From a virus, in the IMG/VR virus record IMGVR_UViG_3300045988_173816, positions 1 through 64,000 of that record: a stretch of 64,000 bases of DNA. The stretch is one strand, 5' to 3'. This document shows positions 1,843 through 28,393 of the stretch, piece by piece; the stretch's first letter is position 1, and each line of letters begins with the position of its first letter. The notes under the pieces are model-generated. The model was not told the DNA's origin. It searched no databases and saw only the letters and a program-made list of their open reading frames with translations. The position numbers and the translations under genes were made by a program.

Positions 1843-4800
1843 ATGTTAAAAGTAAGTGGACACGGTTCAATTCGTAAAATTAAAGGTGGAGCTGCGGGTA
1901 TCATTACGCTTTCTGCTCTATTTTTGGGGTTGCAAGGAGTGAGTGCTGATGAGGTAACATCAACAAGTACAAATGAACTAACAACTGAGCTTTCATCTGC
2001 AACGGATAAGGGAGAAGTTTCCAAGGAAGAGACTAAAGTTGAAGATAAGAAAACAGAAGAAAAAACTGAGGTTAAATCTGATGTAGTTTCAACTGAAGCT
2101 TCTACTGAGAAGAAGGAAGAAGTAAAACCTTCTGAAAAAGAAGTCCCAAAAGATACAGATACAGAAACTTTTACTAAAGCTGAAAGTAAAGAGTTTGATA
2201 TTGCTAAGAAAGATGCTGTGGAAAATGGGGTTTCTGTAAAAGAAGACACTAAACCAAGCATTAAAGATTCTGAGAAAGAAGCTCAAGAAGATTTAGCAAA
2301 ACAAACAAAAGACTTGAAAGATGCTCAGAAAACACAAGTAGGTTCTGATGCGATTACTTCTTTGGATAAAGAAAAACTAACAGAAGCAGGAATTAAGGTT
2401 AAAGATGGGAAAGTCGAAATCTTTACAGACCTTGAAAAAATGGCTGCTTTTGTAAACCAACAAAGTAAAAATATTGCTAAAGATATTGAGTCTAAACACG
2501 GTATCGAAAAAGATGTGGCTTTAGCAACTAAAGAGCTTAAAGGTGCAGGTATTGAAGTAGTTGTTGGTGCAGAGGTTGTTAAATCTTCACCAGATGAAGC
2601 TTTAAAAGCAGTAGCTGAACTTCAAACACAAGTAGCAAGTGCTCTTAAAACTAAACAAGAGTTGGATAGTGCTTTTCTTGCTTTACAAGAACGTGCTAAA
2701 GCAGCAGGTTTGTTAACTAAAGAAGGTAAAACAGTTACTTTAGAAAGTGCTAAAGATGCTAAAGACTTTCTAGCAAAACAAACTGAAGAAGTAAATGCTT
2801 TGATTAAGTCTCTAACTGAGGGGAATAAACAAGTTAAAGCTGCAGTAGCTAAAGTTGAATCTTATGGTGTTAAAGTCACTACAACTGAGGGTACTAAAGT
2901 TGACACTGTTGAAAACCTAACTAAATTGGTTTCTGCACAAGTAAGTAAATTTGATGCTTTGATTAAGTCAATTGATGAAAGCAAAGGTCTAATTGATTCT
3001 ACCGTAGCTAAAGCAAAACAAGCAGGTGTATCCTTGGAGGGTGAAACTGTTGTTAATTTGGCTAAAGGTGAAGAAACTAGCTTGAAAGAAAAAGTTGCAA
3101 GTGCTTTGAAAGAGTTGGATGCTGCAACTCAAGTGCAAACTTCAACTAAAGCTGAGTTTGAGAAATTAGTTTCTGATGCACGCGCTAAAGGTTTAACTGT
3201 AAATATTACAGGTGCTAAGAAAGTTGAAGTTTCAGGGGTATCAAAAGAACTTGAAGCGATTAAAACTAAGATTGCACAGGCTTTGGCAAATAAAAATAAA
3301 GCACAAGTTGATTATGAGACTGCTTTGAAGAACTCACAAGAAGCTAGTCGTTTAGCAGAAGGTTCAACGGCTAAAAAAGAGGGTAATGTTTATAAACAAA
3401 GTTTGACCATTAAGTCCAATGGTACAAAAGGTTCTGTAAGTGTGAAGGTTACGGGTAGCGCTGAGATTGTATCTGTAGAATTGGTTGATCCTACAGGTGC
3501 AAAAGTACCTTCTGTTAAAACTTTAGCAGACTTAACTGCGTACACTGATTTTAGTAAGACTGGAAATTACACAGTTAATTATACTTTCCGAGCTAAAGAT
3601 AACGGTACAGGTTCAGTGGTATCTTCTGCAAACACTCAAGGTGTAGCAGCAGTAGAGGGTAAAGCTACAGGTACTTTGTCAGTTACTACTAAGGCTCCAG
3701 TTTCTACAAATGTAACTAATGAGTCTAAACCTACTGTTTTGGATATTGTTTTAGACTTTAGTTCATCTTACCGTTATAAGATTTTCGATTCAATTGATCA
3801 AGCTAAGATGTTAATTAAAGAGGCTTTGACAAATGATAAGTCAAAAGTAATTATTCAAGCTTATAATTACAATAGTAAAACTTCTTATGGCGTTCAAACT
3901 GGTGATTCCGAGGGGTATTCAACTACTTTATTAACTAAACAAGAAGCTTTAGATATTTTAGACAAACTAAAAGCATTGGCTAAACGTCAACCGTCCTTGG
4001 GTAGTTCAGATGCTTTGGGGTACAACGAGTATTTCGCTGCTATCGGTAAAACTTTTGGAGATAAAAATTACACAGATTCAACTTCTGCAACAGCCATTAT
4101 CCCATTCGAGGATGTAGTTCGTAAGTTCATCACAGATACAGATATCGTTTCAGTTATTCAGTTTACAGATGGTTGGACTGCAGGAGTATCTAGTAATGGT
4201 ACAACTGCTTCAGTCGAAAATATTGATATTACTTTTGCTGAATGGGCTAAGCATAGAGCTAAAACTTTCATGACTGTTATTAACAAAAACGTTACAAAGG
4301 CTTCTGAGGGTGATTCAGATAAAGACACAAACTCCGACCAGGCATTTGAAGCTATGCAACGCGTAGGACACCCAAATATCTATGATATGACAGGTAAAGA
4401 TCGTGCAGTTGTGGATAAAGAGTTGTTAGCTAAATTTAAAGAAACTGCAATTGAAAAAGTAACTTCTACAAAAGGCGAAGACCAACTAGTAACTGTATCT
4501 ATCACTGGTACTAAAACTGCAAAAGTTACTAAAGCAACTCTCAAAGGTGCTACTAACAAAGACTTACCTATTAAAGATGGTAAAGTTAACTTCTCTGAAA
4601 AACTACCAGACGGAACTTGGACAGTTAACTACGAACTTTCAGGAGATGGTGATGTTACCGTAACTGCAACTGTCGCAGGAAAAGAAGTAGTAAAAGAAAC
4701 TAAGAGTCTTAAAGAAGTTAAAGGTGCTGAAGGTACTTCTGCAACTAAGACTGATAACATTAAAGCATTGGTTGTTCCAAACAAACCTTCTACTGCTCCA

Positions 4801-5151
4801 ATTTCAGTTGAGGGGTTAGTTGTAACTGCTAAGTCTGTACGTTTAGGTACTGTTGAGTCTGACGCTACTACAGTAACTATTGAGAAAGAAGTTAAGAAAG
4901 CTACTTTCAAAGAAACTGTTTCTCCGATTACATTTGAGCGTGAGGTTGTTCCTACACAAGCAGAGGTAACTACGCATGATGTTTACGTTAAGACTCCAAA
5001 ACCTCAACCTAAACCTCAACCAGAAGGTAAAACATTGCCTAAAACTGGTGAATCTAGTGATATTTCTGTACAAGCTGCGGGTGCGGGTATCGGTTTAGTA
5101 GGTCTTCTAGCTTTAGCTGGAGCTTCAAAACGTTCTCGTAAAGAAGACTAA
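1843..5151 (+). CDS. Cell-wall-anchored surface protein: YSIRK-like signal peptide, long helical Ala/Lys/Glu-rich repeats, vWA-like domain, LPXTG sorting signal
   Basis: N-term GSIRKIKGGAAGIITLSALFLG; DxSxS-like motif VLDFSSSY; C-term LPKTGE plus hydrophobic stretch plus KRSRKED. Confidence 0.85.
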   Translation: MLKVSGHGSIRKIKGGAAGIITLSALFLGLQGVSADEVTSTSTNELTTELSSATDKGEVSKEETKVEDKKTEEKTEVKSDVVSTEASTEKKEEVKPSEKEVPKDTDTETFTKAESKEFDIAKKDAVENGVSVKEDTKPSIKDSEKEAQEDLAKQTKDLKDAQKTQVGSDAITSLDKEKLTEAGIKVKDGKVEIFTDLEKMAAFVNQQSKNIAKDIESKHGIEKDVALATKELKGAGIEVVVGAEVVKSSPDEALKAVAELQTQVASALKTKQELDSAFLALQERAKAAGLLTKEGKTVTLESAKDAKDFLAKQTEEVNALIKSLTEGNKQVKAAVAKVESYGVKVTTTEGTKVDTVENLTKLVSAQVSKFDALIKSIDESKGLIDSTVAKAKQAGVSLEGETVVNLAKGEETSLKEKVASALKELDAATQVQTSTKAEFEKLVSDARAKGLTVNITGAKKVEVSGVSKELEAIKTKIAQALANKNKAQVDYETALKNSQEASRLAEGSTAKKEGNVYKQSLTIKSNGTKGSVSVKVTGSAEIVSVELVDPTGAKVPSVKTLADLTAYTDFSKTGNYTVNYTFRAKDNGTGSVVSSANTQGVAAVEGKATGTLSVTTKAPVSTNVTNESKPTVLDIVLDFSSSYRYKIFDSIDQAKMLIKEALTNDKSKVIIQAYNYNSKTSYGVQTGDSEGYSTTLLTKQEALDILDKLKALAKRQPSLGSSDALGYNEYFAAIGKTFGDKNYTDSTSATAIIPFEDVVRKFITDTDIVSVIQFTDGWTAGVSSNGTTASVENIDITFAEWAKHRAKTFMTVINKNVTKASEGDSDKDTNSDQAFEAMQRVGHPNIYDMTGKDRAVVDKELLAKFKETAIEKVTSTKGEDQLVTVSITGTKTAKVTKATLKGATNKDLPIKDGKVNFSEKLPDGTWTVNYELSGDGDVTVTATVAGKEVVKETKSLKEVKGAEGTSATKTDNIKALVVPNKPSTAPISVEGLVVTAKSVRLGTVESDATTVTIEKEVKKATFKETVSPITFEREVVPTQAEVTTHDVYVKTPKPQPKPQPEGKTLPKTGESSDISVQAAGAGIGLVGLLALAGASKRSRKED

Positions 5152-5571: not shown

Positions 5572-5944
5572 GGGGTCGTCTGGATTCGACAGGCGGTTAG
5601 ACTTTTTAACCTCGCACCGAGTGACTACGTTATAGTCGAACTTAAACATAACTGCAAATAACAATGCACCAGTTCGTATGGCTGCCTAAGCCTTTGGCTT
5701 CGGTAGTTGATATGAACACAAGTAAAATAGTCGAATAGACGAGCGACTGAGATAGGTACCGGTATCTTTTAGTTGCTATAAATCTCGGTACTCGCAACTA
5801 AGGTTTCTCAACTTAGTGTGTTAAATAGAGATATAACTTTTAGTTTTGTGCGTTTCCTAAAAGTCGAATGTTGAAACGTAGCAGTGCGCAGTAAGGTTAA
5901 CTGGAAAGGTCGTTTGGACGTGGGTTCGACTCCCACCGGCTCCA
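5572..5944 (+). ncRNA. ssrA: tmRNA (transfer-messenger RNA), predicted tag ANNNAPVRMAA
   Basis: 5' GGGGTCGTCTGGATTCGACAGG hallmark; 3' T-arm GTGGG-TTCGACT-CCCAC with acceptor CGGCTCC pairing the 5' end; internal frame GCA AAT AAC AAT GCA CCA GTT CGT ATG GCT GCC TAA. Confidence 0.85.
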
Positions 5945-5977
5945 TAAACTAACGAAAAAAACATACACAAAGGGGAT

Positions 5978-8760: not shown

Positions 8761-8831
8761 GCGGAATGGTAGCAGTGGTAGCTCGCTTGGTTCATACCCA
8801 AGAGGTCGCAGGTTCGAGTCCTGTTTCCGCA
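8761..8831 (+). tRNA. tRNA with anticodon CAT (Met or Ile2)
   Basis: Anticodon stem CTTGG/CCAAG with loop TTCATAC; T-loop TTCGAGT; acceptor GCGGAA/TTCCGC. Confidence 0.8.
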
Positions 8832-8866
8832 ATAAAATTATTATTATAACTTTAAAGGAGGATAAA

Positions 8867-9034
8867 ATGGTACGTAGATTGTTCCCAAATCATAAACGAT
8901 ATACTAAAAAGGGTGTTACAGCTTTTTATCATCCTGTTTATAAGTGGGTTCATTTGATTTACCCAGATACGATAGACAATCCCTTTTTAGGAGGGAGTTT
9001 GATTGAGGACTCTATAGATAAGTTTAAACAATAA
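8867..9034 (+). CDS. small ORF (55 aa)
   Basis: Strong RBS AAAGGAGGA 7 nt upstream of the ATG; below the ORF-track cutoff. Confidence 0.65.
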   Translation: MVRRLFPNHKRYTKKGVTAFYHPVYKWVHLIYPDTIDNPFLGGSLIEDSIDKFKQ

Positions 9035-9327
9035 ACAGGCTTGAGGGTATCTAACACCCCTGTAGGTTCCTTGTACGGTTTAAAAGATGATAGAAATGAA
9101 CTAGTTGGTGTGGAAGAGGTGCTTTTGTGAATTCTTCTAGTCAACAAAGTAACAAAGAACCGAGATATTCGGATTATTTGAGTTTAAACACTTTAAACAG
9201 TATGTTTCAATCTATAGCTTCAGTTTCTTATGTTGATTACAGAGTTGTAGCAACTGTTTTACATTTAATTATTGAACTTTGTTTAAAGAAAAGGTGTTCT
9301 CCCACCTATTAAGCGGAGGCGATAAAG

Positions 9328-9860
9328 ATTGTCCTAAATAAGACAATTAAACTGTTTCATTATGTAACTTAAATCTAATGGTAAAACCATTATTATCGAG
9401 CTTTGCTTGTAAATTTTGCCACTTGCCGATGAGGTGGGATATAAATGATTCGGTTCGTGAAATTTTGCCACATACTAGGTTGTGGGATATAAATAATCTA
9501 GTTTGTAAAAAAAATTGCCCTAAATAAGACAACTAAACTGTTTCGTTAAGTAAAACGTTAAACCAACGGAGATACCATTACCGTCAAGCTTTGCTTGTAA
9601 AGTTGGCAATTAAATCGACCTGAGTAAGTCACCTTAACTGCTCTAGGTGATACCATACCTTTGTACTTAGATACATAAAGTTGGCAAAAATTTGTCCTAA
9701 ACACGACATTAAACTATTTCGTCTCTTAGACGTTAAACGAGCGTTGACTTTAGGTAGCTACCTCACGGTTATCTAAACGAGCTTCTGATTAGGGTTTTCG
9801 GTATACACCGCGGGTGGGGATTCAAAACCGAAGTTTACTTGTAGTTGATTTGTAAATTTG
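9328..9860 (+). ncRNA. Three tandem units of about 180 nt, each opening with the box (A/T)TTG(T/C)CCTAAA(T/C)A(A/C)GACA-N-TAAACT(G/A)TTTC (orphan guide-RNA-scaffold-like units)
   Basis: Unit starts at 9328, 9514 and 9691. The same box follows the stop codon of the TnpB/Cas12-like ORF at 15951. Units A and B also share AGCTTTGCTTGTAAA. No credible ORF. Confidence 0.55.
9792..9833 (+). ncRNA. Hairpin GGTTTT/AAAACC with loop core CCGCGGGTGGGGA
   Basis: Same stem and loop core as 10301-10332; loop core shared with 10171-10213. Confidence 0.45.
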
Positions 9861-10072
9861 ATATAACATGGCCCCCTGTCTAACATAGTCATTTATGGAA
9901 AACGTGTTAAGAACTTCTAACTGCTTGTTCCCTGCTTTGTCAAAATAACTTTTAGGGGAGAACACATTTGCAAAATTGAAATTATAAGTAAATAATTTTA
10001 TGGTGTAGTCCAGTCGCGCTTAGCGATTGGTGCAAAAGAAAGGTCGTGCGCAAGACTAATCTGCTACACATA

Positions 10073-10145
10073 GCCGATCTAGCTCAGTTGGTAGAGCCTC
10101 TGATTTGTAATCAGACGGTCAACGGTTCGAATCCGTTAATCGGCA
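10073..10145 (+). tRNA. tRNA-Thr (anticodon TGT)
   Basis: GCCGATC-TA-GCTC-AGTTGGTA-GAGC D-arm, anticodon stem TCTGA/TCAGA with loop TTTGTAA, T-arm AACGG-TTCGAAT-CCGTT. Confidence 0.85.
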
Positions 10146-10170
10146 TGGAGCATAGCTCCCAAGTATACTT

Positions 10171-10213
10171 GGTAGGTCTGTACATCCCCGCGGTTGGGAA
10201 GATACAGACCTAC
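10171..10213 (+). ncRNA. 11-bp hairpin with loop core CCCGCGGTTGGGA
   Basis: GGTAGGTCTGTA/TACAGACCTAC stem; loop related to those at 9792 and 10301. Confidence 0.45.
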
Positions 10214-10300
10214 TTACTTACTTAGACTGTTACCTATAGTATGGTCAAGCGTTATAAAGTTTTTAGACTACCCACAGGTCTAATTACAAGCTTTGTTTAG

Positions 10301-10332
10301 GGTTTTCGGTGAAGACCTCGTTGGGGAAAACC
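10301..10332 (+). ncRNA. Hairpin GGTTTT/AAAACC with loop core CCTCGTTGGGGA
   Basis: Near-copy of 9792-9833. Confidence 0.45.
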
Positions 10333-10426
10333 GAGTTTTGTCAGATAAGAGACATTAAATCTTATCGAGTGAATGTGCGGAAGATAAAATCTTTCGCATT
10401 TTTGATAGAAAGGGAGTGGTTTCACA

Positions 10427-10573
10427 ATGTACAAAGAAGTTGTTTTAGATGAGTCTATTTTGGACTTAGAATCTTGGTTGCCACAATCTACAATAGATGA
10501 GGTTGCTGCTTTAATTTTATATTTAGAATCACAGGAAGAAAACACTCAGTCGGTATCCTCAACAAACCTTTGA
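10427..10573 (+). CDS. small acidic ORF (48 aa, MYKEVVLDESILDLESW...)
   Basis: RBS AAGGGAGTGG upstream; below the ORF-track cutoff; the track only shows an antisense ORF here. Confidence 0.55.
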   Translation: MYKEVVLDESILDLESWLPQSTIDEVAALILYLESQEENTQSVSSTNL

Positions 10574-10598
10574 TTTTTCAAGGTTTTTATGTTATACT
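10570..10598 (+). promoter_or_regulatory. sigma-70-type promoter overlapping a terminator-like hairpin
   Basis: TTGATT, 17 nt, TGTTATACT; hairpin CCTTTGA/TCAAGG spans the -35. Confidence 0.6.
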
Positions 10599-10635
10599 TA
10601 ATTTAAATTTTAGAAACACAAAGAGAGAAAGAAAG

Positions 10636-11382
10636 ATGATAAAGAAAATAATGAGTCAGTCACTTACTGGTACAAACCACGACAATGAAGACATTTATAA
10701 AGTCTATAAGAACTATGTTTGGGTTATGGATGGTGCTACAGATTTATTTGATACACCTAGTAAGTATGGGTTTTCGGTATCCCAAGTCATGCAAACTTTA
10801 AATCAAGCTTTACCTAAAGAATGTAAAGCTTATAAAGGGTTGAAAGACATTTTAGCTTCTGCAATCTCACAAGTGCAAGCTACATATTTATCCTCTGATT
10901 TAATTTATGATTACTCTGAGTTACCAACTTTTGCTTTTATGTTTGGTCGCTTTATTGGAGATATTTTTGAGTATATTTACTTAGGAGATTGTTATTTAGT
11001 GGTAAATCAAGTAGATTTGATTACAGATAATTCCTTTGCTCCTTTTGTACAAGCAAATAGAGAAGAAATTGCTCACTTAAAGACTCTCAGCGATATTGAT
11101 TTAGAGTTTGAGGTTAGAGAAGTTTATAAACGAACTCGCCACTTAGCAAACCATCCTCAAGGGTATCGAATTGGGAGTCTCGATCCAGAGTGTGCTTATT
11201 TGAGTAATCAAGGTTATTTCCCTTATAATGGTCAAGAGTTGATGTTTATGACAGATGGTTTTTACAATATGTTTTCCAAGTTTGGTTCTATAAGTCGAAC
11301 ACTTTACGAAATTCAAAACTTGCATTTAGAAGGTTCAGTTAAACTAGACGATGCAACCGTTGTAGTAGTGAGAGGGAGTTAA
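10636..11382 (+). CDS. PP2C-like protein phosphatase domain protein
   Basis: GTNHDNEDIY...VMDGATDLF near the N-term and DDATVVVV at the C-term; start moved to the ATG at 10636 behind RBS AGAGAGAAAGAAAG. Confidence 0.5.
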   Translation: MIKKIMSQSLTGTNHDNEDIYKVYKNYVWVMDGATDLFDTPSKYGFSVSQVMQTLNQALPKECKAYKGLKDILASAISQVQATYLSSDLIYDYSELPTFAFMFGRFIGDIFEYIYLGDCYLVVNQVDLITDNSFAPFVQANREEIAHLKTLSDIDLEFEVREVYKRTRHLANHPQGYRIGSLDPECAYLSNQGYFPYNGQELMFMTDGFYNMFSKFGSISRTLYEIQNLHLEGSVKLDDATVVVVRGS

Positions 11383-11383
11383 G

Positions 11384-12118
11384 TTGTTTATTCCTTTTCA
11401 AGAGGGGTATTCTATTTCATATGTACCCTCTACATATACTCCTTACTTCTCTAATGAGTTTCAACAAGATTATATTTCTAGTAATTATCCAACTGCCTTT
11501 AATGGTTCTACTGTTCGGTTAGAAAATATAGACAGACATGAGAGTGGTGCAGTTTCCTTAACTTGTTCACCTTTAGACTTTTACTCATTTCTAATAAGTA
11601 ATTTATTAGTAACTCCTACAGAGATAACTTCAGACACCTTTGAAAACTATCTTACTTGTTCCTATTTAGCGAATGTGATAGCAGTAAGTGTTTTGATATA
11701 TGACTCAAAATCCGTGTTGTTAACTAAACGAAGTGCGACTGTTTCTATTAGTCCAAACTCAGTAGGGGTATCCGTCACAGGTGGAGTTACTTTAAATGAC
11801 CTAAGATCATCTGATTGTTTGCGCTCTGCAGTTCAAATTGAGGTAAAAGAAGAGTTAGGTTTGTCTGTTTCTTTTGCAGATATAATAGTTTCAGGTCTTT
11901 ATATCAGTAAAGATAAACTTCAACCTGTTGCAATTTGTTTTGTTAAGGTGTCTGACATAAGGTCATTATGTTTGTGCGGTGAGGATATTGAGTTTGAGGT
12001 GCAGTCTTTTGAATTTGTGTCTTTTCACGCTTTATCTAAACTAGATTTAACCTCATCTACGGACACTACACAGTTTCACTTGAATTATTTTATTTCTGAG
12101 GTTGTTCCCACTCCCTAG
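11384..12118 (+). CDS. Nudix-like hydrolase (degenerate Nudix box)
   Basis: GGVTLNDLRSSDCLRSAVQIEVKEELGL resembles GX5EX7REUXEEXGU with R replaced by I; TTG start abutting the upstream stop. Confidence 0.4.
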   Translation: MFIPFQEGYSISYVPSTYTPYFSNEFQQDYISSNYPTAFNGSTVRLENIDRHESGAVSLTCSPLDFYSFLISNLLVTPTEITSDTFENYLTCSYLANVIAVSVLIYDSKSVLLTKRSATVSISPNSVGVSVTGGVTLNDLRSSDCLRSAVQIEVKEELGLSVSFADIIVSGLYISKDKLQPVAICFVKVSDIRSLCLCGEDIEFEVQSFEFVSFHALSKLDLTSSTDTTQFHLNYFISEVVPTP

Positions 12119-12140
12119 TTGAAACAAACTAACTAAAACC

Positions 12141-12169
12141 TTGACTTTTCAAGGTTTTTATGGTATAAT
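12141..12169 (+). promoter_or_regulatory. sigma-70-type promoter whose -35 lies inside terminator hairpin 12137-12159
   Basis: TTGACT, 17 nt, TGGTATAAT; hairpin AACCTTGA-CTTT-TCAAGGTT plus T-run. Confidence 0.75.
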
Positions 12170-12201
12170 TAAGAAAATTAACTTGGAAAGAAGTAAAGAA
12201 A

Positions 12202-12882
12202 ATGAAACTTACTAAGAAAATGGAACATGATTACCAAACTTACTTAGATCAGTTTGGTTCGCAAACAACTGTAGATGAGTATAAGCACCTTATACGAAAG
12301 TGCAATCCGAATGCTTTGTCTGATAGCTTAACTCATTATTTAAAACGTTTCTTCTTCGATATTGTAGAGGTTTCTGTTTCAGAAGACAAACTTAAAGTTG
12401 TAGTAAAGGATAGAGGAGAAGTAGAGCTAGGAGTGATTACTAGCCACTACGCAAACTTTCCTATGCTATACTCGGTATCCACACATGATGCAGTCAAATT
12501 GTTGTCTCACATTTGGTACAGTTTTGAAGATGGTTTTGATTTAGCTTGTCTGACTGGGTATTGGGATTACCCGGAGAAGTTTGAGGGTAGTGATGTTCTT
12601 CAGTTTGAACAACCTATTCCTCAAATCACCTCGGTTCAATTCAGAACTTCGATTGAAGAGGTTTTTATTACAAATAAAAGTGCAGGAAAACGAGTTTACC
12701 TAGAAAAGTTAGAGCATTTGCATGAGTTAAGTAAAGTTTTAGATTGGTTGTCTTGTTCTAACTATGTAGAACTTCCCAATTCCGATTGGGTATCCTCACT
12801 AGAAGTTTTACCTTACACATCTGAGTCTACGATTAACACTCAAGTTTGTGTTCGTCCATTTATTGAGGTGAAGGTCATTTAA
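12202..12882 (+). CDS. hypothetical protein (226 aa)
   Basis: ORF track. Confidence 0.7.
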   Translation: MKLTKKMEHDYQTYLDQFGSQTTVDEYKHLIRKCNPNALSDSLTHYLKRFFFDIVEVSVSEDKLKVVVKDRGEVELGVITSHYANFPMLYSVSTHDAVKLLSHIWYSFEDGFDLACLTGYWDYPEKFEGSDVLQFEQPIPQITSVQFRTSIEEVFITNKSAGKRVYLEKLEHLHELSKVLDWLSCSNYVELPNSDWVSSLEVLPYTSESTINTQVCVRPFIEVKVI

Positions 12883-12884
12883 CT

Positions 12885-13235
12885 ATGGTCAAGTTATATA
12901 ATACACAAACAGTAGGTGTTCGTTACTTTTCTGATAAAATTGTTGAGCAAAATGAAGTCACTCTTGAAAATCCAACCTCAAATTGTAAAATTGTTAAAAT
13001 AAAAGCAGACAGGATTTGTAAAGACTGTGAAGCAGTTATTCCAAAGGGTACAAGATGTTATACTTTCAATCCTAGGTTGAAATCTCGCTATTGGGATTGT
13101 TTTGATTGTCTTCCAGAACCGGACCAGATGGTTGAGAGGGAAGTTGGGGTAGTAACTAGTAGTGACCATTTACTTTATTACTCCGACCGTTTCGGTAGAT
13201 TGGGTCAGCGTGTTTCAAAAAAAGCAAGCTACTAG
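12885..13235 (+). CDS. zinc-ribbon-like protein (116 aa)
   Basis: CKDC...CYTF...CFDC cysteine pairs; RBS GAGGTGAAGG; an A7 run sits just before the stop. Confidence 0.65.
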   Translation: MVKLYNTQTVGVRYFSDKIVEQNEVTLENPTSNCKIVKIKADRICKDCEAVIPKGTRCYTFNPRLKSRYWDCFDCLPEPDQMVEREVGVVTSSDHLLYYSDRFGRLGQRVSKKASY

Positions 13236-13438
13236 AGAAGAGATAAAGCACTTTTATTCTGTAAAAGAAGAAGTGGAAGAAGAGTCTTTATTTGGCTTGC
13301 ATTTTGATGATTATTAAACCGAGGGGTATCTTAAAATTTCCTTGTTTATTTGTATAATAGCTTTTGCAAATGAGATAGAGTCATTTATTCGAAATAAAAT
13401 GATTGAAATTTAAAAATTAGAGAAAGGATTGGTAAATT

Positions 13439-14287
13439 ATGTCTTATATCAAACCACCCACTAAAGAGGAAAAAGCAGCTTATTTGGAGAAATTTCAAAC
13501 TGTATTTTTGTTTACTTTTTTAGCTTCAGTTTTTGTAGTTTTACTTTTTGTTTTAGGTTATTTATTGTATCGTCACGCGGATACAATAAATTATATAGGT
13601 TTACCATTATTGATGGTAGTTATTCTTTCGGGAGTTATAGGTTCCACTTATGTTGAAGTTTATGAAAATTGGAATGTGATTTACAATCGCCATAGAGTAG
13701 GACATTATGCTTACTACATGAACTCCATATTCGTAGCCTTATTTATGACTGTGGTATCCTTTGGTTCTTACTTTGCTTTACCTCTAGTTGGTGTGCAGGT
13801 ATTAAACCCATACTTGTTATCTTTTATCTCTATAGTCTTGACTACTATATTTACTTTGTACTACATATTTAAAGTAAAGAAAGACAAACCTCCTTTACCT
13901 TCTTTGACTACAGAAGAGAGTGAAGCTAGAGAGTTTTTAAAAGACCTTTATTACAGAAAACTTGGCTTAAACAGTTCACTTAATGGTACAGAGTACCTTT
14001 TACTATCTGATAATTATTCTAGGTTAGGTTGTCTTGATTATTACATCAATTACGGAGTATTTAATCTCTCGCAAGTTGCTGAGTGGGTAGAACATTTAGA
14101 GAATAATGAGATAACAGTAAGTACGCTCTTTGTTCAAATGGATCAACTTAATAAAGAGCATAACAAAGAGAAGTGCAAAGAAGTGTATGAAAAAGCCAGT
14201 GATTTACTGAGTTACTGGAGAGAGCTACCAGCACTTATGAGAGATTCTAAAAGACTTAGAAGTAGACTTCAACGTTATTTAGACTAG
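13439..14287 (+). CDS. membrane protein (about 4 TM helices) with charged C-terminal domain
   Basis: Hydrophobic segments FLFTFLASVFVVLLFVLGYLL, LPLLMVVILSGVIGS, FVALFMTVVSFGSYF and LLSFISIVLTTIFTLYYIF. Confidence 0.7.
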   Translation: MSYIKPPTKEEKAAYLEKFQTVFLFTFLASVFVVLLFVLGYLLYRHADTINYIGLPLLMVVILSGVIGSTYVEVYENWNVIYNRHRVGHYAYYMNSIFVALFMTVVSFGSYFALPLVGVQVLNPYLLSFISIVLTTIFTLYYIFKVKKDKPPLPSLTTEESEAREFLKDLYYRKLGLNSSLNGTEYLLLSDNYSRLGCLDYYINYGVFNLSQVAEWVEHLENNEITVSTLFVQMDQLNKEHNKEKCKEVYEKASDLLSYWRELPALMRDSKRLRSRLQRYLD

Positions 14288-14435
14288 TTAGTTGCTTAAA
14301 ACAAACACCTTTGAAGAAATAGTGCTTGTTTCTCTTTACGTACACTTAAGGTTAATTTCGGTATCCTACTTTTAGGTTATTTCTTTGCACTTTCAATACT
14401 TTTTAATAAGTTTTTCAAATTTAGCTAATTTTTTA

Positions 14436-14464
14436 TTGACAAAATTTACCTAATGTAGTAAAAT
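14436..14464 (+). promoter_or_regulatory. sigma-70-type promoter
   Basis: TTGACA, 17 nt, TAAAAT. Confidence 0.55.
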
Positions 14465-14499
14465 AAATACAGTTAAAACTTGAAAGGAGGTCTCTTCAC

Positions 14500-15948
14500 A
14501 TGGAGAAAGGTAAACAAATCTTTATCTATACGCGTAAACTAAATGCAAATAAGTCTCATAAAGAGCAGTTTGCAAAACGTTTCCATATGGCAGAAGATAT
14601 TTATAAGAAAACGCTGATTACATTGTTAAAGCGTTACTCCAAGATGAAGAAAGACCCCCTGTACAAGAGAGCTTACAAGTTCCCTAAAGGAAAAGAGCGT
14701 AATGCGATTTTGAAAGATTTAGGGGTTAAGTACGACCTTGTAGGTAAGTTCACGGCAGGTAAGATTGCTAATGATTACCGTAATGCTCGTAATTACAGTG
14801 ATTATATTCCCTCTGATACTGCTGTTCGATTAGGACATAGAGCTTGGGGTGCTTTTAGCAAAGTTAGGTTTGCTAAAGGTGCGGATAAAGTAAATCTTAA
14901 AGGTACGTTGATTTCATTTGAGGGTAGTAGAGATATAGGAATTAGCGTAAAAGGTAATGTTTTCACTATTTCTACTCGCAAAAAGAAAGTTTCATGTACT
15001 ATTCGTAACGAAAATGATGATTTTGAAGAAGAAGTCTTGCGTAATACATTGAAGTACAATCGTCTCGTTCGTAGGTTTGAGTTTGGAGAGTGGAATTATT
15101 ATGTACAATCTATTTTTGAAGGAACTCTCCCAACAAAGTACACTTCCGAACTTGAAGGTTCTGTAGGGATTGATATTGGTATATCAACCATTGCGGTATC
15201 TTCTTATTACCAAACAGAGTTAGAAGAACTAGCTAAAGATGTAACTTTGGATCAACAAGAGGTTACTCGTTTAAGTCGCAAACTTGACCGTCAACGACGA
15301 GCAAATAACCCTCATAAATACAATGAAGATGGTACTATTAAATGTGGTGTTTGTCAACCTTGGGTTGACTCTAAAGAGTATTTGAAAACCAAAGCAGAAC
15401 TTTCTGAGTTACACCGTAAATCAAAAGAACAGCGTAAATTGGCTCATAAAACTCTAGCTAACAGAATCGTCCGTATGGGTTCTACTTTTGTGGTTGAGCA
15501 GATATCCTTTAAAGAATTACAAGCTCGCACTAAGGAAACAAAAATCAATGAACATACTGGTAAATTTCAATCTAAGAAACGCTTTGGTAAAACTATTTTA
15601 CACAAAGCACCAGCTATGTTGATTGAGCAAATTCGTTATAAAACCATGTATCAAGGTAAAACTTTCATTCTTGCAAATACCAGAGAAGTAAAGGCTTCTC
15701 AGCTAAATCATTTAACTGAAGAGTACACAAAACCTTCTTCAAGTACACGTGTGAAGATGATTGGTGATGATTTAGTTCAACGTAACTTATACTCTGCTTA
15801 TTTACTTCAGCATGTAGGGTTAGATGGTGTAACAGTAGACATTAAGGGATGTAAATCAGATTTTGACACATTTTTACGCAATCAAGAGTTTACAATGTCT
15901 CAACTAACTACAGATTTAAAATCTATAGGTAAAGAATACTTTAATTAA
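14500..15948 (+). CDS. TnpB/Cas12-like RNA-guided-nuclease homolog (482 aa) without zinc-ribbon cysteines; third RuvC acidic residue apparently Asn
   Basis: RuvC-I VGIDIGISTIAV and RuvC-II FVVEQISFKEL present. TnpB-typical RRANNPHKYNEDGTIKCG present. The C-terminal motif reads DDLVQRNLYSAYLL where TnpBs carry (R/A)DxNAAxNI. No CxxC pairs. Strong RBS GAAAGGAGG. Confidence 0.7.
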   Translation: MEKGKQIFIYTRKLNANKSHKEQFAKRFHMAEDIYKKTLITLLKRYSKMKKDPLYKRAYKFPKGKERNAILKDLGVKYDLVGKFTAGKIANDYRNARNYSDYIPSDTAVRLGHRAWGAFSKVRFAKGADKVNLKGTLISFEGSRDIGISVKGNVFTISTRKKKVSCTIRNENDDFEEEVLRNTLKYNRLVRRFEFGEWNYYVQSIFEGTLPTKYTSELEGSVGIDIGISTIAVSSYYQTELEELAKDVTLDQQEVTRLSRKLDRQRRANNPHKYNEDGTIKCGVCQPWVDSKEYLKTKAELSELHRKSKEQRKLAHKTLANRIVRMGSTFVVEQISFKELQARTKETKINEHTGKFQSKKRFGKTILHKAPAMLIEQIRYKTMYQGKTFILANTREVKASQLNHLTEEYTKPSSSTRVKMIGDDLVQRNLYSAYLLQHVGLDGVTVDIKGCKSDFDTFLRNQEFTMSQLTTDLKSIGKEYFN

Positions 15949-15950
15949 AA

Positions 15951-16198
15951 ACTTGTCCTAAATAAGACTTTAAACTGTTTCGGAGTTAATTTGGAGACTT
16001 CGTGAGGAGGTCGTTAATTCAAACACAGGTTTGATTGACTTCTGAGTGACTAGGTGTTTATTCTTGACTCAAAAAAGCAATGTACATAAGAGGTAACTCT
16101 CACTTGAGGGGTATCCAGTAGTAACTTCTGAGTAGACAATAACATTTATGTTGCAGCTTTGTCTAATAGATAGGTTCATTAAAAAACTAAATATTCGA
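15951..16198 (+). ncRNA. Putative guide-RNA scaffold or leader between the TnpB/Cas12-like ORF and its array
   Basis: Starts 3 nt after the stop with the box CTTGTCCTAAATAAGACTTTAAACTGTTTCG, also found 3 times at 9.3-9.7 kb; no ORF. Confidence 0.45.
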
Positions 16199-16433
16199 GG
16201 TTTTGGTACTTATTTGAACATCAAGTTTCCAAAGGTACTAGATGCTGAGTTATTGAGGTGAGGAATTTTTGATATCTGTTTGAACGTCAAGTTTCCAAAG
16301 GACATCGTAATTAACAAGTATGATTTGTCATGTTTGGGTACCTATTTGAAACTCAAGCTTCCAAAGGATATCTTTTTCTTTTTCATTATACTTTATTGGT
16401 TTGGCACCTTCTTAATTTAATACAGTTTCAAAG
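16199..16433 (+). CRISPR. Mini CRISPR-like array 1: three 37-nt repeats plus a degenerate fourth, 29-nt spacers, 66-nt period
   Basis: Repeats at 16199-16235, 16265-16301, 16331-16367 and a degenerate one at 16397-16433. The 3' halves are nearly identical (TTTGAACATCAAGTTTCCAAAGG); the 5' halves diverge (GGTTTTGGTACTTA versus ATTTTTGATATCTG). Confidence 0.65.
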
Positions 16434-16551
16434 ACGTGTGAGCAAATTATATAAGGTTTGGTAATACTATGTTTATCAAGGATTTATAACCTATATATAA
16501 GGGAAATTTTGATTTAGATTTAATAGAACACTTACTTTAAGTGTTTTTTTT

Positions 16552-16580
16552 TTGACTTTTTATAAGTTTTTTGATATAAT
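16552..16580 (+). promoter_or_regulatory. sigma-70-type promoter just after a terminator
   Basis: TTGACT, 17 nt, TGATATAAT; preceded by hairpin AACACTTA/TAAGTGTT plus T9. Confidence 0.75.
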
Positions 16581-16611
16581 AAAGAAAATAAATGAAAGAG
16601 AAGTTTAAAAT

Positions 16612-17886
16612 ATGTATGTTTTGTCTATTAAATTAGATCCTAGAGGTTACGAAAAGCAGTTAGAAAAACGCTTTTGGTTGATGTATAAGTTGAAAAGAGC
16701 TACTATTCAGTGGTTCAATACACAGGAGCACAGAAGGGTATCCTCAGAAGAATATAAACTCCTAGCAACTGAATTTAAAGAGTATTTAGAGGTTAAAGAT
16801 ACTTTATCTAAAGCAGACCAAAAAGCTCAAGATAAAGAGTTCATGAAGAAGTGGGGCGAGTTAAATTCGACATTCAAGTTAGACTCTAGTAAGTTTGTGA
16901 AGTATACTGATTTGGGGCAAGCGACTAATATGTTCAGACGCTATTCCGAAGAAGGTTATGTGAATTGGTCTACCTTTGAAGATTTAGCTTTAGCAGTTAA
17001 GAAAGGGTATTTGAAGCGCAGAAAACAACCTAACTCAGAGAATACTATGAAAATTCCTCGCTATGTAGACTTTCATGGTTTTATTGTTCGTAAGCGTAAT
17101 TTAAATATCACTCAAGATGGGTTATATTTAGGTGGAAATAGAGGAGCTGAGAAAGAGAAGGGTATTTACTTACCGTTTGATTTTGAAGCAAACAAAGGTA
17201 AAGATATTGAGTTAGCTTATGCCTTATCTGAACAAAAGATGTCATATTGGGGTATTTATCGAAAACAAGACAAGTTTGGAAATTGGGTTTATTACGCACA
17301 GATTATATTTGATGGAGAACCTTATCGTTACCAGCTTGTTAAAGGTAACGAAAAAGTTCTTATTTCAGTTGATGTAGATACTTTAGAGTTGACTGCAACC
17401 AATAGTAAGAATACTATTCGTTATGATTTAACTAGAGATTTCGGTATCTCAGATAAATTATCTAATTTGGATCGTTTGATTGAAAACTCTCGTCGAGTAA
17501 ACAATCCTCAAAATTTCAATGAAGATGGTACAATTAAACAAGGTCGTCTCAAGTGGAACAATACGAAGACTTATTACAAATTGTTAGGTAAGCGCAGATA
17601 TATTTGGCACAAGCTAACTCAGACTCGTAAGAACTTTTATGGTCGCGTAATCAATGATTTGTTAGGTTTTGGTTCTGAATTTGAGGTTCACATGCAAGAC
17701 TTCAAAGCATTGCAGGAGCGTATCCAGTATAACAAGGAAACTATGTCTTGGTTTGACTCTCGCAAGTCAAGAGGTGCTGAGATTATGTTCAATGCCCCTT
17801 CTGAGTTTATTCGAATGTTAGATACTAAATTAGCGTATAATGGTTTATCAGCAGTAAAACAAATAAAAGTAAAAGAAAAACAATAA
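16612..17886 (+). CDS. Truncated TnpB/Cas12-like protein (424 aa), predicted nuclease-dead
   Basis: Aligns by eye to the 482-aa neighbour (RRVNNPQNFNEDGTIKQG; FEVHMQDFKALQ versus FVVEQISFKELQ, so RuvC-II Glu is His). It ends before the zinc-ribbon/RuvC-III segment. Confidence 0.65.
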   Translation: MYVLSIKLDPRGYEKQLEKRFWLMYKLKRATIQWFNTQEHRRVSSEEYKLLATEFKEYLEVKDTLSKADQKAQDKEFMKKWGELNSTFKLDSSKFVKYTDLGQATNMFRRYSEEGYVNWSTFEDLALAVKKGYLKRRKQPNSENTMKIPRYVDFHGFIVRKRNLNITQDGLYLGGNRGAEKEKGIYLPFDFEANKGKDIELAYALSEQKMSYWGIYRKQDKFGNWVYYAQIIFDGEPYRYQLVKGNEKVLISVDVDTLELTATNSKNTIRYDLTRDFGISDKLSNLDRLIENSRRVNNPQNFNEDGTIKQGRLKWNNTKTYYKLLGKRRYIWHKLTQTRKNFYGRVINDLLGFGSEFEVHMQDFKALQERIQYNKETMSWFDSRKSRGAEIMFNAPSEFIRMLDTKLAYNGLSAVKQIKVKEKQ

Positions 17887-17920: not shown

Positions 17921-18018
17921 TATAAATAGTTAGGGCAGTTCACAGTCCTGTGGAGATATTTTATATCTTTGCGAATAACCTTGCATAAAGGGAAACTACG
18001 GTAAGAACTTAGTTGTGA

Positions 18019-18684
18019 GGTTTTGGTACTGGCTTGTTTGTACACATAGTGAAACATCGGTTGCTTGAACTTGTATATAACAAGCGTTTTAATAACTGTT
18101 TGTATACTTAGTGAAACGACTGCCTGTTTTTCAGCAATGAGTCAGATGTTTAGGTGCTTAGTTCTTCATTTGGTGAAATACTAGACTAGATAACTCTTGA
18201 TTGCTAAAGGTGTTGGTACTCGTTAATTTGTACACTTGGTGAAACTCCGTTACTAGCCACATGAACAACAAAGAAGTTTTGGTTCTTGTATATGTAAATT
18301 TAGTGAAATCTGGTTAACCGAATAATGTAAAACAAACCTATTTTGGTATCGGTTTATTTGTACAATTAGTGAAATTCGTTTTTGTTAACAACTTTAGATT
18401 TCTATTAAGTTTTGGTACTAGTTAATTTGTATAGGTAGTGAAACTCAGTCAAAGCAGATATAGTAGTGAACTCATTTATTTGTAACTCTTTGGTATTCAA
18501 AATTTAGGTGTTTGTTTATTTGTACACTTAGTGAAACTTCATCGAAAATCAGGTAAAACTCTCTTCTGAGTTTTAATCTTAGTGAAATAAGCTATATTTA
18601 CGAATATTAGTAGTTGATTTAGTGTATTTATCATTTTAAACGGTGTTAAATATATAGCGTAAAGCTGATTACTTTACGTGAAAC
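18019..18684 (+). CRISPR. CRISPR-like array 2: about 9-11 strongly degenerate repeats (19-37 nt) with 29-33-nt spacers
   Basis: Repeat 3' ends (TTAGTGAAAC/T) at 18055, 18117, 18179, 18245, 18309, 18375, 18444, 18537 and 18588, possibly 18684. Consensus GTTTTGGTACT...TTTGTACANTTAGTGAAAY. The 5' GGTTTTGGTACT is shared with array 1. Confidence 0.7.
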
Positions 18685-21819: not shown

Positions 21820-23154
21820 ATGCGTAAGCGAAAATATATTGTGGTTACACAATTACACGAGCAAAATAACAAAGATTTGATTGAATATGTAGAAGTTGCT
21901 CGTCATGCTTACGCTAAAGCTGTGCGTGAAACTTTCTATTGTATTAAAAACTTAGAAGAGTTTAATAAGTCTAGTTTTAACACTTATTTACAAGACTCTT
22001 ACAGTATTACCAAACGAACTGCTAACTCAATTATATCAGATGCTCAAGGTCAAATAAATAGGCTCAAAGGGTTAAAATGTTATGAGAAAACTCAGTTAGA
22101 GCGAAAAATAAAGCAGTTGGAAACAAATGTTATTCCAAAACTAGAACAAAAACGAGATGATACCTCAACTATGTTGAGGTTAGGTTTAGCGGTATCCTTA
22201 GTTTCTCAACGAAATTTAAGGCGCAAGATAGTTGCTAAGAAACAAAAGTTAAATCGCTTAAAACAAAAATTAGCTAATTTAACTTATCAGATTGAAACTT
22301 CTAGTTTTAAATTGTGTTTTGGTACAAAATACTTGTTGCAAAGAGATTATACTGCCTTTGTAGAAGGTAGAGACAGTCAGATGTCTTTCGTGGGTGCGAA
22401 ATGTGAAACCTCTTGTAATCATCAACTACAACTTAGGTATAACTCTAAAAATAATCAATTTGAACTTAAGATGCGAAAAGATTTTGGTGGATTTAAAGAC
22501 TTAAAAGGCTCTGGTCGTTTCGTACTTGGTAAACTTTACTTTAGACATCATAAGGATAAGATAGTCCGTATCCTTAAAGAGAAGAATAGTCCTCTAAGTT
22601 TTAAAATTATCAAGAGAAATAATAGATACTATCTCTATTGTACGTTTGAAGTACAACTTGATTCTGATGATTTCTTAACACGTTCTACTTATGGTACTAT
22701 TGGTTTAGACTTCAATAAAGGGTTCATTACTTTGTCTGAGATTAATCGATATGGTCACTTAGTTCAAACTCAGTTTTTACCTTATCGGTTTAAGTCTGGG
22801 AATAGAACTAGAACCGATTTACAACAGATTGTAGCTAATGTAGTGCATTTGTCATTGAATGAGGGTAAGGATTTATGTATTGAAAATTTGAACTTTGATA
22901 GAAAAAGAGCTAAAACCGAAACAAAACAAGGTAAGAAGTATAATGATATGATTCATTCTCTTGCATATAGTCAGTTTGTAGATTTAGTAGAAACTATAGC
23001 TTACAGGAATAAAGTATTTATTAGGAAGGTCAATCCAGCTTGGACGAGTTGGATTGCAAAACAGAAATATTGTCCACAAATGAAGCTAAATGTTCATGTC
23101 GGAGCTTCATTTGTAATTGCAAGACGTGGACAAGGTTACAAAGACACCGTATAA
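21820..23154 (+). CDS. tnpB: TnpB (IS607-associated type, 444 aa)
   Basis: RuvC-I IGLDFNKG, RuvC-II LCIENLNF, C-term NPAWTSWIAK...HVGASFVIARRG. Confidence 0.75.
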   Translation: MRKRKYIVVTQLHEQNNKDLIEYVEVARHAYAKAVRETFYCIKNLEEFNKSSFNTYLQDSYSITKRTANSIISDAQGQINRLKGLKCYEKTQLERKIKQLETNVIPKLEQKRDDTSTMLRLGLAVSLVSQRNLRRKIVAKKQKLNRLKQKLANLTYQIETSSFKLCFGTKYLLQRDYTAFVEGRDSQMSFVGAKCETSCNHQLQLRYNSKNNQFELKMRKDFGGFKDLKGSGRFVLGKLYFRHHKDKIVRILKEKNSPLSFKIIKRNNRYYLYCTFEVQLDSDDFLTRSTYGTIGLDFNKGFITLSEINRYGHLVQTQFLPYRFKSGNRTRTDLQQIVANVVHLSLNEGKDLCIENLNFDRKRAKTETKQGKKYNDMIHSLAYSQFVDLVETIAYRNKVFIRKVNPAWTSWIAKQKYCPQMKLNVHVGASFVIARRGQGYKDTV

Positions 23155-23421
23155 GTTCTTTGAACAGACAACCTTATACAAATGTATTAACTGCAAGACA
23201 AGTTAGCATTTCCCTGTAAGGTGGTGTTAAGTAGAAGCTTTAACAATAAGTGCTATTGTGTAGCTTTTAAAGTTGAAATAGTATGAGTTAAAGTGGAATA
23301 GGTTAACTGTAAGACCTTAAGTTGAAAAACTTTAAAATTGACCTTAATGATTTTATAATTATTGAGTTACGGTTGCTTGTCCGTAGTATTTTAATAGAAT
23401 TAAAAGTGAAGGAGAATTACC

Positions 23422-28359: not shown

Positions 28360-28393
28360 TATTTTATGAAGTTTAGTGAAAGGGGTTCGAAAA

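Follow-up and report, generated by a model that had tools for sequence, protein, structure and literature searches.

A small H-type RNA pseudoknot at the 5' edges of RNA modules in a phage genome fragment and in tailed phages of Firmicutes, cyanobacteria and Proteobacteria

In phage T4, all gene 32 transcripts are cut by RNase E at position -71, and a pseudoknot lies at -67 (PMC3014915, section 24; PMC535899). The RNA upstream of the cut decays fast, and the gene 32 messenger RNA (mRNA) is the most stable T4 mRNA (PMC3014915, PMC535899). Theta ribozymes, which resemble the hepatitis delta virus (HDV) ribozyme, adjoin phage transfer RNA (tRNA) genes and trim tRNA 3' trailers in gut phages (PMC10879173). 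Here we analysed 64,000 nucleotides (nt) of viral DNA (positions 1 to 64,000 of IMG/VR record IMGVR_UViG_3300045988_173816; hereafter the window), in which a box of about 30 nt opens three neighbouring units (A, B and C) and recurs behind a gene for a TnpB-like protein. The box was found to be an H-type RNA pseudoknot of 28-32 nt, and it was compared with these systems.

The consensus of the box consists of the segments N-G-N-C, C, UAARYA, N, G-N-C-N, NWAAAC and URYUU(A). The first helix (P1) has 4 base pairs (bp; UGUC/GACA in the window) and is followed by a first loop (L1) of one nt, a C. In the second helix (P2), of 5-6 bp, the hairpin loop (UAAAUA) pairs with the tail (UGUUUC); the third loop (L3) is A-rich, 6-7 nt long and ends in AAAC. 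The single nt between P2 and the return strand of P1 was the only freely varying position of the box (T 58, A 45, C 16 and G 3 in 122 instances). The L1 C was nearly invariant, and the AAAC closing L3 was present in 101 of 101 aligned sequences, its C not being fixed by the search.

Pairing between loop and tail was suggested by the prophage boxes, in which two positions had changed together relative to the window box. For P2, the third loop position was fixed to G in the search pattern and the tail was left free; C was found at the predicted partner in nearly all of about 100 distinct contexts. Of 122 in-register instances, 48 had A in the loop and all of these had U in the tail; among the 74 with G in the loop, the tail had C in 70 and U in four (Fisher p = 1e-29; this and the other covariation counts take in related sequences). 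In the 101 tail-free sequences, columns 13-29 held GC in 60, AU in 37, GU in 2 and other combinations in 2, and columns 14-28 held CG in 45, UG in 32, UA in 12 and other combinations in 12. With the two-helix structure placed on the ungapped alignment of these sequences, 89% of the cells were paired, compared with 26-47% when the partner was slid by 1-3 columns, and the observed covariation score was reached by none of 500 shuffles.

For P1, the pattern fixed P2 and the P1 3' strand (with a non-canonical middle base), while the 5' strand lay outside the pattern. In 107 distinct sequences, 3' GTC was paired with 5' GAC and 3' GGC with 5' GCC, a GTC/GAC class occurring as well; the outer pair also covaried (AGAC/GTCT 30, TGAC/GTCA 18, CGAC/GTCG 10). 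Both helices covaried over a few hundred distinct phage contexts, which shows that the box acts as a folded RNA. A simple hairpin, drawn from the TTGTC/GACAA or GTCCTA/TAGGAC palindrome, was rejected because the stem extensions were not kept and the real partner of the loop was the tail. Rfam 15, used at gathering and E-value thresholds on the window and 11 motif-bearing loci, returned no family for the box or the units, and a literature search by sequence string gave nothing relevant on the box.

A hidden Markov model (HMM) of the box, built from 26 distinct copies in this phage group, matched exactly four sites of the window at E <= 4e-10 (9329, 9515, 9692 and 15953). These copies lie on the + strand, as do the fifth copy, the cassettes, the promoter-like sites, the 482-aa gene with the RNA behind it, and the IS605-orfB-II element with its fragment, all described below. 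Copy A (9329-9358; E = 3.9e-10) reads UUGUC-C-UAAAUA-A-GACA-AUUAAAC-UGUUUC, with 4 bp in P1 and five of six pairs in P2 in the structural scan. Copy B (9515-9544; E = 1.5e-10) carries a U-to-C change that weakens P1 (UUGCC...GACA) by breaking one pair. Copy C (9692-9720; E = 5.1e-11) is kept in relatives and copy D (15953-15981; E = 4.3e-13) in 8 relatives. P1 of copy D begins 5 nt past the TAA stop codon of the open reading frame (ORF) for a 482-aa TnpB-like protein, in agreement with an earlier note on this DNA that had placed a box directly after this gene. The same note had counted six box loci; these four stood, and its sites at 326-358 and 36111-36134 (HMM matches at 313 and 36117) scored at chance level (E = 1.7 and 0.76, respectively) and were related to each other.

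A fifth copy (10339-10366; UGUC-A-GAUAAG-A-GACA-UUAAAU-CUUAUC), overlooked in the earlier note, was recognised by repeat analysis (family D1), by its conservation in relatives and by a generic structural pseudoknot scan, which is unspecific, with about 2.4 chance matches expected per window. Its P2 (GAUAAG/CUUAUC) is unlike that of the box in sequence and perfectly complementary, and a terminator-like hairpin follows on the 3' side (10375-10399). Copies A, C and D fit the consensus and register of the family and copy B is off by one P1 pair; P2 in the window comprises 4-5 of 6 pairs.

The family to which the box belongs is large and spans tailed phages of Firmicutes, cyanobacteria and Proteobacteria. 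A strict box pattern gave 13 matches in 185,579 bacterial and archaeal genomes, with about 0.3 expected by chance. These were located in Gemella, Enterococcus, Tissierella, Clostridium and other Firmicutes, and 11 of the 13 shared one context: an intrinsic terminator, the box and a leader, followed mostly by prophage scaffolding and major capsid genes. The same arrangement was present in the annotated phages Streptococcus Javan407, Clostridium CP51, Enterococcus SEsuP-1 and Lactococcus LLC-1; in Firmicutes phages, the box lies about 100 nt upstream of the scaffold and major-capsid genes. A first pattern scan was over-permissive and produced mostly unrelated matches, some of which were later recognised as true family members; two family scans yielded at least 120 loci each. 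In the loop-G scan, capsid-scaffold-like proteins, many of about 160-240 aa, formed the largest identifiable group of downstream genes. Among the cultured carriers were phages of Streptococcus, Clostridium, Enterococcus, Lactococcus, Synechococcus, Microcystis, Nostoc and Stenotrophomonas.

The distance from the upstream stop codon was most commonly 5-7 nt, and that to the next start codon ranged from 3 to more than 300 nt. Out of 141 distinct instances, 25 lay within 300 nt of a tRNA gene on the same strand, and about 10 abutted a tRNA within 10 nt. The tRNA-flanked pseudoknots began 1-9 nt past tRNA 3' ends and stood 2-9 nt ahead of tRNA 5' ends. In L252 (4858-5310), the order was tRNA-Leu, pseudoknot, tRNA-Ser, pseudoknot, tRNA-Thr, tRNA-Asn, pseudoknot, with the spacers filled and 1-9 nt left to the tRNA ends. 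A short UCGC linker was recurrent 5' of the pseudoknot in the L252 lineage.

Further sequences accompany some copies. Scaffold-gene leaders (L200: 2540-2592; L202: 2530-2628; L203: 2530-2644) carry 2-4 direct repeats of the GCAATG-N3-5-GGGGC or GCGTGTATGGG type in the stretch from the pseudoknot to the ribosome-binding site (RBS), and these repeats may be a second conserved element of Firmicutes phage leaders. At L187 (1850-2050) and L196 (690-900), a small ORF with a strong RBS encodes MKR[YF][MI]IPRVAHC..GC..KS and has its stop codon inside the pseudoknot. An intrinsic terminator lies 3' of that pseudoknot, at about 8 nt in L196 and about 25 nt in L187; the next genes in L196 are queD, queE, queC and queF.

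Among the relatives of the window, which are IMG/VR contigs of 160-280 kb, the box is a portable element at the 5' edge of RNA modules. Its upstream contexts included the 3' end of a tRNA-Met (6 nt away), a further tRNA-like end, the TnpB-like stop codon, and the ends of a methyltransferase gene and of a B-type cassette. Downstream of it were found a methyltransferase gene (L023), cassette C, an RNA resembling the omega RNAs of TnpB systems, or other sequences, and in L151 the box and the omega-RNA-like RNA were located apart from the TnpB-like gene. The 5' flanks varied (AAGA, AAAA, AAAT, AAAC, ATTA, TAAC and others), and each genome of about 250 kb held 2-5 copies.

The pseudoknot of T4 and T2 gene 32 shares with the box the H-type fold and a size of about 28-34 nt; in T2 it has a first stem (S1) of UGACC/GGUCA, a 1-nt L1, a second stem (S2) of 7 bp and a 7-nt loop. 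In both cases S1 has 4-5 bp, the UGAC at its start being found also in one common P1 variant of the new family, S2 has 6-7 bp, the last loop has 6-7 nt, and 0-1 nt separate S2 from the S1 return strand. Location is comparable as well, each standing a few nt 3' of a processing site (a putative one for the box) and 5' of a gene with high expression. S-CRM01, a T4-like cyanophage, has the motif at the homologous place, starting 56 nt before the gp32 ATG in the order gp33-gp59-pseudoknot-gp32; with the same gene order in T2, the start of the gene 32 pseudoknot is 67 nt ahead of the ATG, and its sequence was confirmed in 357 T-even records.

The two structures also differ. S2 and the loop read GCUAUGA and UACAUCG in T2, compared with UAARYA and NWAAAC in the family. 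The only known site of the T-even pseudoknot is upstream of gene 32, where it works with gp32 and with downstream UUAAA repeats that overlap the RBS, whereas the new family is found mostly in tRNA spacers, scaffold leaders and noncoding cassettes, to which gp32-type autoregulation is inapplicable. [quoted passage not shown] Either homology or convergence could account for the common architecture.

Units A, B and C follow one another with box-to-box spacings of 186 and 177 nt. The earlier description of three tandem units of about 180 nt holds for this spacing but not for their kinship. Without the box, units A and B are paralogues (z score 11), sharing the reported AGCTTTGCTTGTAAA and further sequence, while unit C showed no significant similarity to either (z < 2); the units are therefore one paralogous pair and one unrelated cassette. 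The body of cassette A (9359-9415) contains hairpins, among them a weak terminator-like one (CGAGCTTTGCTTG, 9397-9409). That of cassette B (9545-9691) is homologous to it, and its own homologue in L151 lies directly 3' of tRNA-Ser, with wobble-compatible hairpin changes. Cassette C has a body with three hairpins (9720-9835); over 9692-10001 it is 88-92% conserved in relatives, with compensatory hairpin changes such as CG to UA in hairpin 1, and no variable, guide-like segment was found in unit C across 7 relatives. This genome has cassettes A and B in addition.

The two copies of TTTTGCCAC-N10-GTGGGATATAAAT noted earlier in unit A are present and are read, from their match to the consensus and from repeat analysis, as putative tandem sigma-70-type promoters (9416-9493). 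Site 1 has TTGCCA (9416-9421), 18 nt and TATAAA (9440-9445); site 2 has TTGCCA (9465-9470), 17 nt and TATAAA (9488-9493), and its predicted start would fall about 15 nt 5' of copy B. Another promoter-like site of the sigma-70 type (9839-9867; TTGTAG-17 nt-(TGa)TATAAC), identified by consensus match only, is conserved in the relatives' alignment. Window genes use near-consensus sigma-70 promoters, such as TTGACA-17-TAAAAT 5' of the 482-aa gene. The hairpin that closes cassette C (9793-9830) and the one directly 5' of the fifth pseudoknot (10300-10335) are paralogous (GGGTTTTCGG...CCGA(A/G); 81% identity over 27 nt).

Downstream of copy D, an omega-RNA-like structured RNA occupies 15982-16176. 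It is 87% conserved, with 14 compensatory pairs in the relatives' alignment, and probably provides the TnpB-like protein with its guide-RNA scaffold. Compared with the 3' flanks of homologues borne on insertion sequences (IS), it showed weak similarity (z = 1.6 and 3.4), and Rfam gave no match to it over 15800-16620 at E <= 10. Of the box-led RNAs, it alone is placed like an omega RNA, units A-C lying about 5 kb from the nearest TnpB-like gene. A guide of this RNA that targets the box was considered and dropped, as box and tail did not co-vary across relatives.

These observations are best accommodated, in our judgement with a probability of about 0.55, if the box is a cis-acting boundary element that marks and protects the 5' end of the downstream RNA. 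The pseudoknot would act as punctuation between co-transcribed RNA modules: an endonucleolytic cut would be made in the short A/U-rich linker just 5' of it, the new 5' end would then be capped and protected by the pseudoknot, and the RNA that follows would be insulated in its folding, be it cassette A, B or C, the TnpB-associated RNA, a scaffold mRNA or the next tRNA. Cleavage in the linker and 5' protection are proposed because gene 32 RNA of T4 behaves in this way. Units A-C would thus be independent small-RNA cassettes with one opening pseudoknot each, and copy D would give the TnpB-associated RNA a 5' end of its own. Identical boxes could further serve as sites for homologous exchange of cassettes between genomes. 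The PeSL (promoter-early stem-loop) cassettes of T4-type phages offer a comparison: there too, a short conserved regulatory element is repeated where variable cassettes meet, and modules seem to be shuffled through it among related phage genomes. A PeSL combines a sigma-70 early promoter with a hairpin, whereas the box is an RNA pseudoknot without promoter consensus.

Several points weigh against a boundary function. For all these phages, cleavage beside the pseudoknot is something we infer from the T4 case. In prophages the motif stands directly after an intrinsic terminator, so that its transcription has to be assumed to occur by read-through, and cyanobacteria and Firmicutes have no common RNase E-type endonuclease; the breadth of the family would be easier to reconcile with an activity independent of the host (RNase P, the ribosome, self-cleavage or a ligand). 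The window copies themselves are weak versions, with a P2 of A/U pairs only (4-5 pairs) and a broken P1 pair in copy B, and the p-values given above overstate independence, since related sequences were counted. Terminator position, the lack of a shared endonuclease and the inferred cleavage keep a decoy RNA, a sensor and a self-cleaver alive as rivals. The earlier note had offered a common signal for all noncoding islands as one option. What the evidence favours is not far from such a shared signal at the RNA level, the box being folded RNA that always stands at the 5' edge of a module, but the hairpin islands at 480-850 and 35700-36550 lack the box, and processing at the box is suggested by analogy.

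The pseudoknot could instead be the product itself, that is, a free RNA of about 30-35 nt that works in trans on an RNA-binding defence protein of the host, as a decoy or by mimicking an antitoxin, in the way of pseudo-ToxI for type III toxin-antitoxin systems. We consider this unlikely, although it has some appeal: the pseudoknot fills whole inter-tRNA spacers, so that tRNA processing by RNase P and RNase Z would excise it precisely, and its sites (tRNA arrays and capsid leaders) are highly transcribed. The copies are nevertheless single (177-650 nt apart in the window) and do not form tandem repeats of 34-45 nt. No ToxN-, AbiQ- or TenpN-type gene was present beside the copies whose neighbours were examined, no systematic toxin scan having been made, and no antitoxin RNA family came up when motif-bearing regions were searched with Rfam by E-value. 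Type III antitoxins are toxin-specific, whereas near-identical sequence was found here in phages of cyanobacteria, Firmicutes and Proteobacteria.

Slightly less probable is a regulatory aptamer or operator, either a ligand riboswitch like preQ1-I or a site at which a phage protein represses translation, as gp32 does in T4. The preQ1-I aptamer is similar in topology (H-type), size (about 34 nt) and its A-rich third loop. The conserved unpaired nt of the box (L1 C and the AAAC of L3), the copies that stand 3-35 nt before an RBS or start codon, the L196 copy upstream of queDECF with a terminator after it, and the gene 32 position in S-CRM01 would all suit such a function. A sensor or operator would, however, be senseless between two tRNAs or before noncoding cassettes, and most contexts of the family are unfit for a riboswitch. 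The wide range of start-codon distances and the absence of a consistent expression platform after the box also speak against it. The Rfam preQ1 models gave no match, and the position of the ligand-pairing C in preQ1-I corresponds to the unconstrained nt of the box.

It is improbable, on present evidence, that a cut is made at the 5' edge of the box itself, be it by a minimal ribozyme activity of the box or by RNase P with the box as substrate, which would make it a functional equivalent of the theta ribozymes. The two elements share a niche a few nt from tRNA 3' ends in tailed phages, both are small and pseudoknotted, and neither needs particular upstream sequence (PMC10879173); the broad host range of the box would suggest independence from host-specific nucleases. 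Theta ribozymes are nested double pseudoknots in which a 7-bp P1 starts at the cleavage site and J4/2 contains a catalytic C, whereas the box lacks all of these, as it lacks HDV-like P1, P1.1, P3 and J4/2 features. Sequence upstream of the motif is unconserved, which leaves no 5' strand for an HDV-type P1. At 28-32 nt and with two short helices, the box is smaller than any known natural self-cleaving class; it has no 3' RCCA for RNase P, and no Rfam ribozyme or HDV model matched.

We hold it to be very doubtful that the box works at the DNA level, be it as an operator, as a promoter for a phage-specific polymerase or sigma factor, or as the site of recombination or of a transposon end. Its place between terminator and next gene in prophages, the A-rich sequence just upstream and the junctions of relatives, which are mosaic exactly at the box, could be so explained, but compensatory changes in two interleaved helices are not expected of a duplex DNA site. 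The few copies per genome are also at odds with it, and the 5' flank shows no conserved target motif, which an IS200/IS605 end needs. Cassette exchange at the box remains likely, though as a by-product of sequence identity. Two specific candidates were rejected: a sigma-70 promoter in the box (TTGTCC-17-CTGTTT has no A at -11 and was unlisted in the promoter scan, the copies are few and the helices covary), and an IS200/IS605 transposon end (the 5' flanks vary, and the box is inside rather than at the end of the TnpB-omega unit).

Least credible is the main suggestion of the earlier note, in which the units may serve TnpB-like proteins in trans as stand-alone guide or scaffold RNAs (here taken as omega RNAs, tracrRNAs or guide scaffolds with the box as protein handle): one copy does lie at the 5' edge of a structured RNA directly after the 482-aa gene, three TnpB-type genes and an orphan omega RNA are present in the window, and in L151 the box and its omega-RNA-like RNA stand apart from the gene, but, the box aside, units A-C resemble neither the RNA 3' of the TnpB-like gene nor the IS605-orfB-I and -II omega RNAs (z <= 1.7; omega models of Rfam unmatched over 9000-10600 at E <= 10), the box is outside those Rfam models, the units are not complementary to the hairpin-repeat arrays of the window, unit C has no guide-like segment, the IS-borne homologues (L012, L013) are without the box, which also occurs 5' of a methyltransferase gene, and most of the hundreds of phage contexts show no TnpB-like gene nearby.

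A wider proposal is tentative, and we would sooner doubt it than adopt it, without thinking it negligible: the box would be an RNA class new to Rfam and very widespread in phages, of which the T4 gene 32 pseudoknot is perhaps a specialised offshoot, with an autonomous activity at module boundaries. Such activities could be self-cleavage or RNase P recruitment at the 5' edge, ligand sensing, or neutralisation of a defence protein after release from tRNA arrays. Should the scans reflect the true breadth of the family, it would be among the commonest structured RNA elements of tailed phages, yet it is not in Rfam 15, and the gene 32 pseudoknot, long described as unique, would become one member of a general phage device. 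The box would also give a testable handle on how phages separate and stabilise the parts of polycistronic RNA (tRNA arrays, late capsid operons and TnpB guide RNAs), on the shuffling of noncoding cassettes between genomes, and on functions that tRNA-flanked mini-RNAs may have of their own. In annotation it could flag 5' boundaries of phage RNA modules, and in engineering it could be a natural 30-nt insulator.

The gene that precedes copy D (14500-15948) encodes a 482-aa protein in which Pfam recognised OrfB_IS605 only; its clade lacks the zinc-finger cysteines. The first two RuvC motifs (I, GIDIG; II, VVEQISF) are preserved. In place of the third catalytic Asp of RuvC, the window has Asn and L009 has Lys, and this Asp is kept (QRD) in 7 relatives and in the IS-borne homologues; because of the replacement, the window copy may be nuclease-dead or decaying. 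The idea of a nuclease-dead, TldR-like repressor accordingly holds only in part, for the window and L009 and not for the 7 relatives. Of the IS-borne homologues, that in L013 has an IS200-type tnpA gene directly upstream.

Pfam TnpB domains were found in the 482-aa ORF and in a 414-aa ORF (28376-29620). At the gathering threshold, Rfam matched IS605-orfB-I at 23171-23376 and IS605-orfB-II at 35976-36122. The former is a full-length RNA (174.8 bits) directly 3' of a 444-aa ORF (21820-23154) that had no Pfam or PHROG match, and this ORF is probably a very divergent TnpB because of that neighbour.

The IS605-orfB-II RNA (145.7 bits) is an orphan without a tnpB gene; together with its guide-like flank TTCGTCTAATTGG, the element extends over 35976-36134. 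Positions 36111-36122, counted in the earlier note as part of a box, are the conserved 3' end of the scaffold, where the Rfam consensus reads ...AAUUAACGAACUGU. Seven other IS605-orfB-II copies end in ...AGAACTG(T) (...AGAACTGT) and then continue into unrelated flanks, in the fashion of guides. The likeness of the scaffold 3' end (…AGAACUGU) to the box tail is at chance level only. At 316-358, sequence comparison identified an omega-RNA 3'-end fragment TTTAAAGAACTG, 9 nt and the flank TTCGTCTAATTG: in the site at 326-358, the final 12 nt of the IS605-orfB-II scaffold recur, followed by 9 extra nt and then by the flank as at the 36134 end. The flank TTCGTCTAATTGG matches the junction of pseudoknot tail and first hairpin in the C-type cassettes of relatives at 16 of 18 positions; the orphan omega-RNA element may have been inserted into a box-led cassette, or may target one.

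Degenerate hairpin repeats of about 40 nt form two arrays (16199-16440 and 17990-18600), 3' of the 482-aa ORF and of a 424-aa ORF for which Pfam and PHROG searches gave no match. Their units begin with GGTTTTGGTAC and are separated by spacers of about 25-30 nt; they look like the repeats of CRISPR loci, with poor conservation between units. The resemblance of GGTTTTCGGTA in unit C to the start of these repeats, proposed earlier, came down to a short match with an indel, and no significant similarity was detected between the units and the arrays (16190-16450 and 17985-18610), directly or as reverse complement (z <= 2.1). The hairpin clusters at 480-850 and 35700-36550, which the earlier note called hairpin array A and island B, share a conserved loop motif CTGTCAAAGG, and the pseudoknot is not among their hairpins.

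All long ORFs of the window are on the + strand, and its G+C content is about 35%; the window looks like part of a jumbo phage. Megablast of positions 8800-16600 against cultured phages gave no match, and Pfam and PHROGs searches with 20 window proteins provided next to no information. Ten tRNA genes and one transfer-messenger RNA (tmRNA) are encoded; the tmRNA lies at 5572-5947 and has the tag ANNNAPVRMAA. A Gram-positive host is indicated by the LPXTG signal for cell-wall anchoring in a 1102-aa protein (1843-5151).

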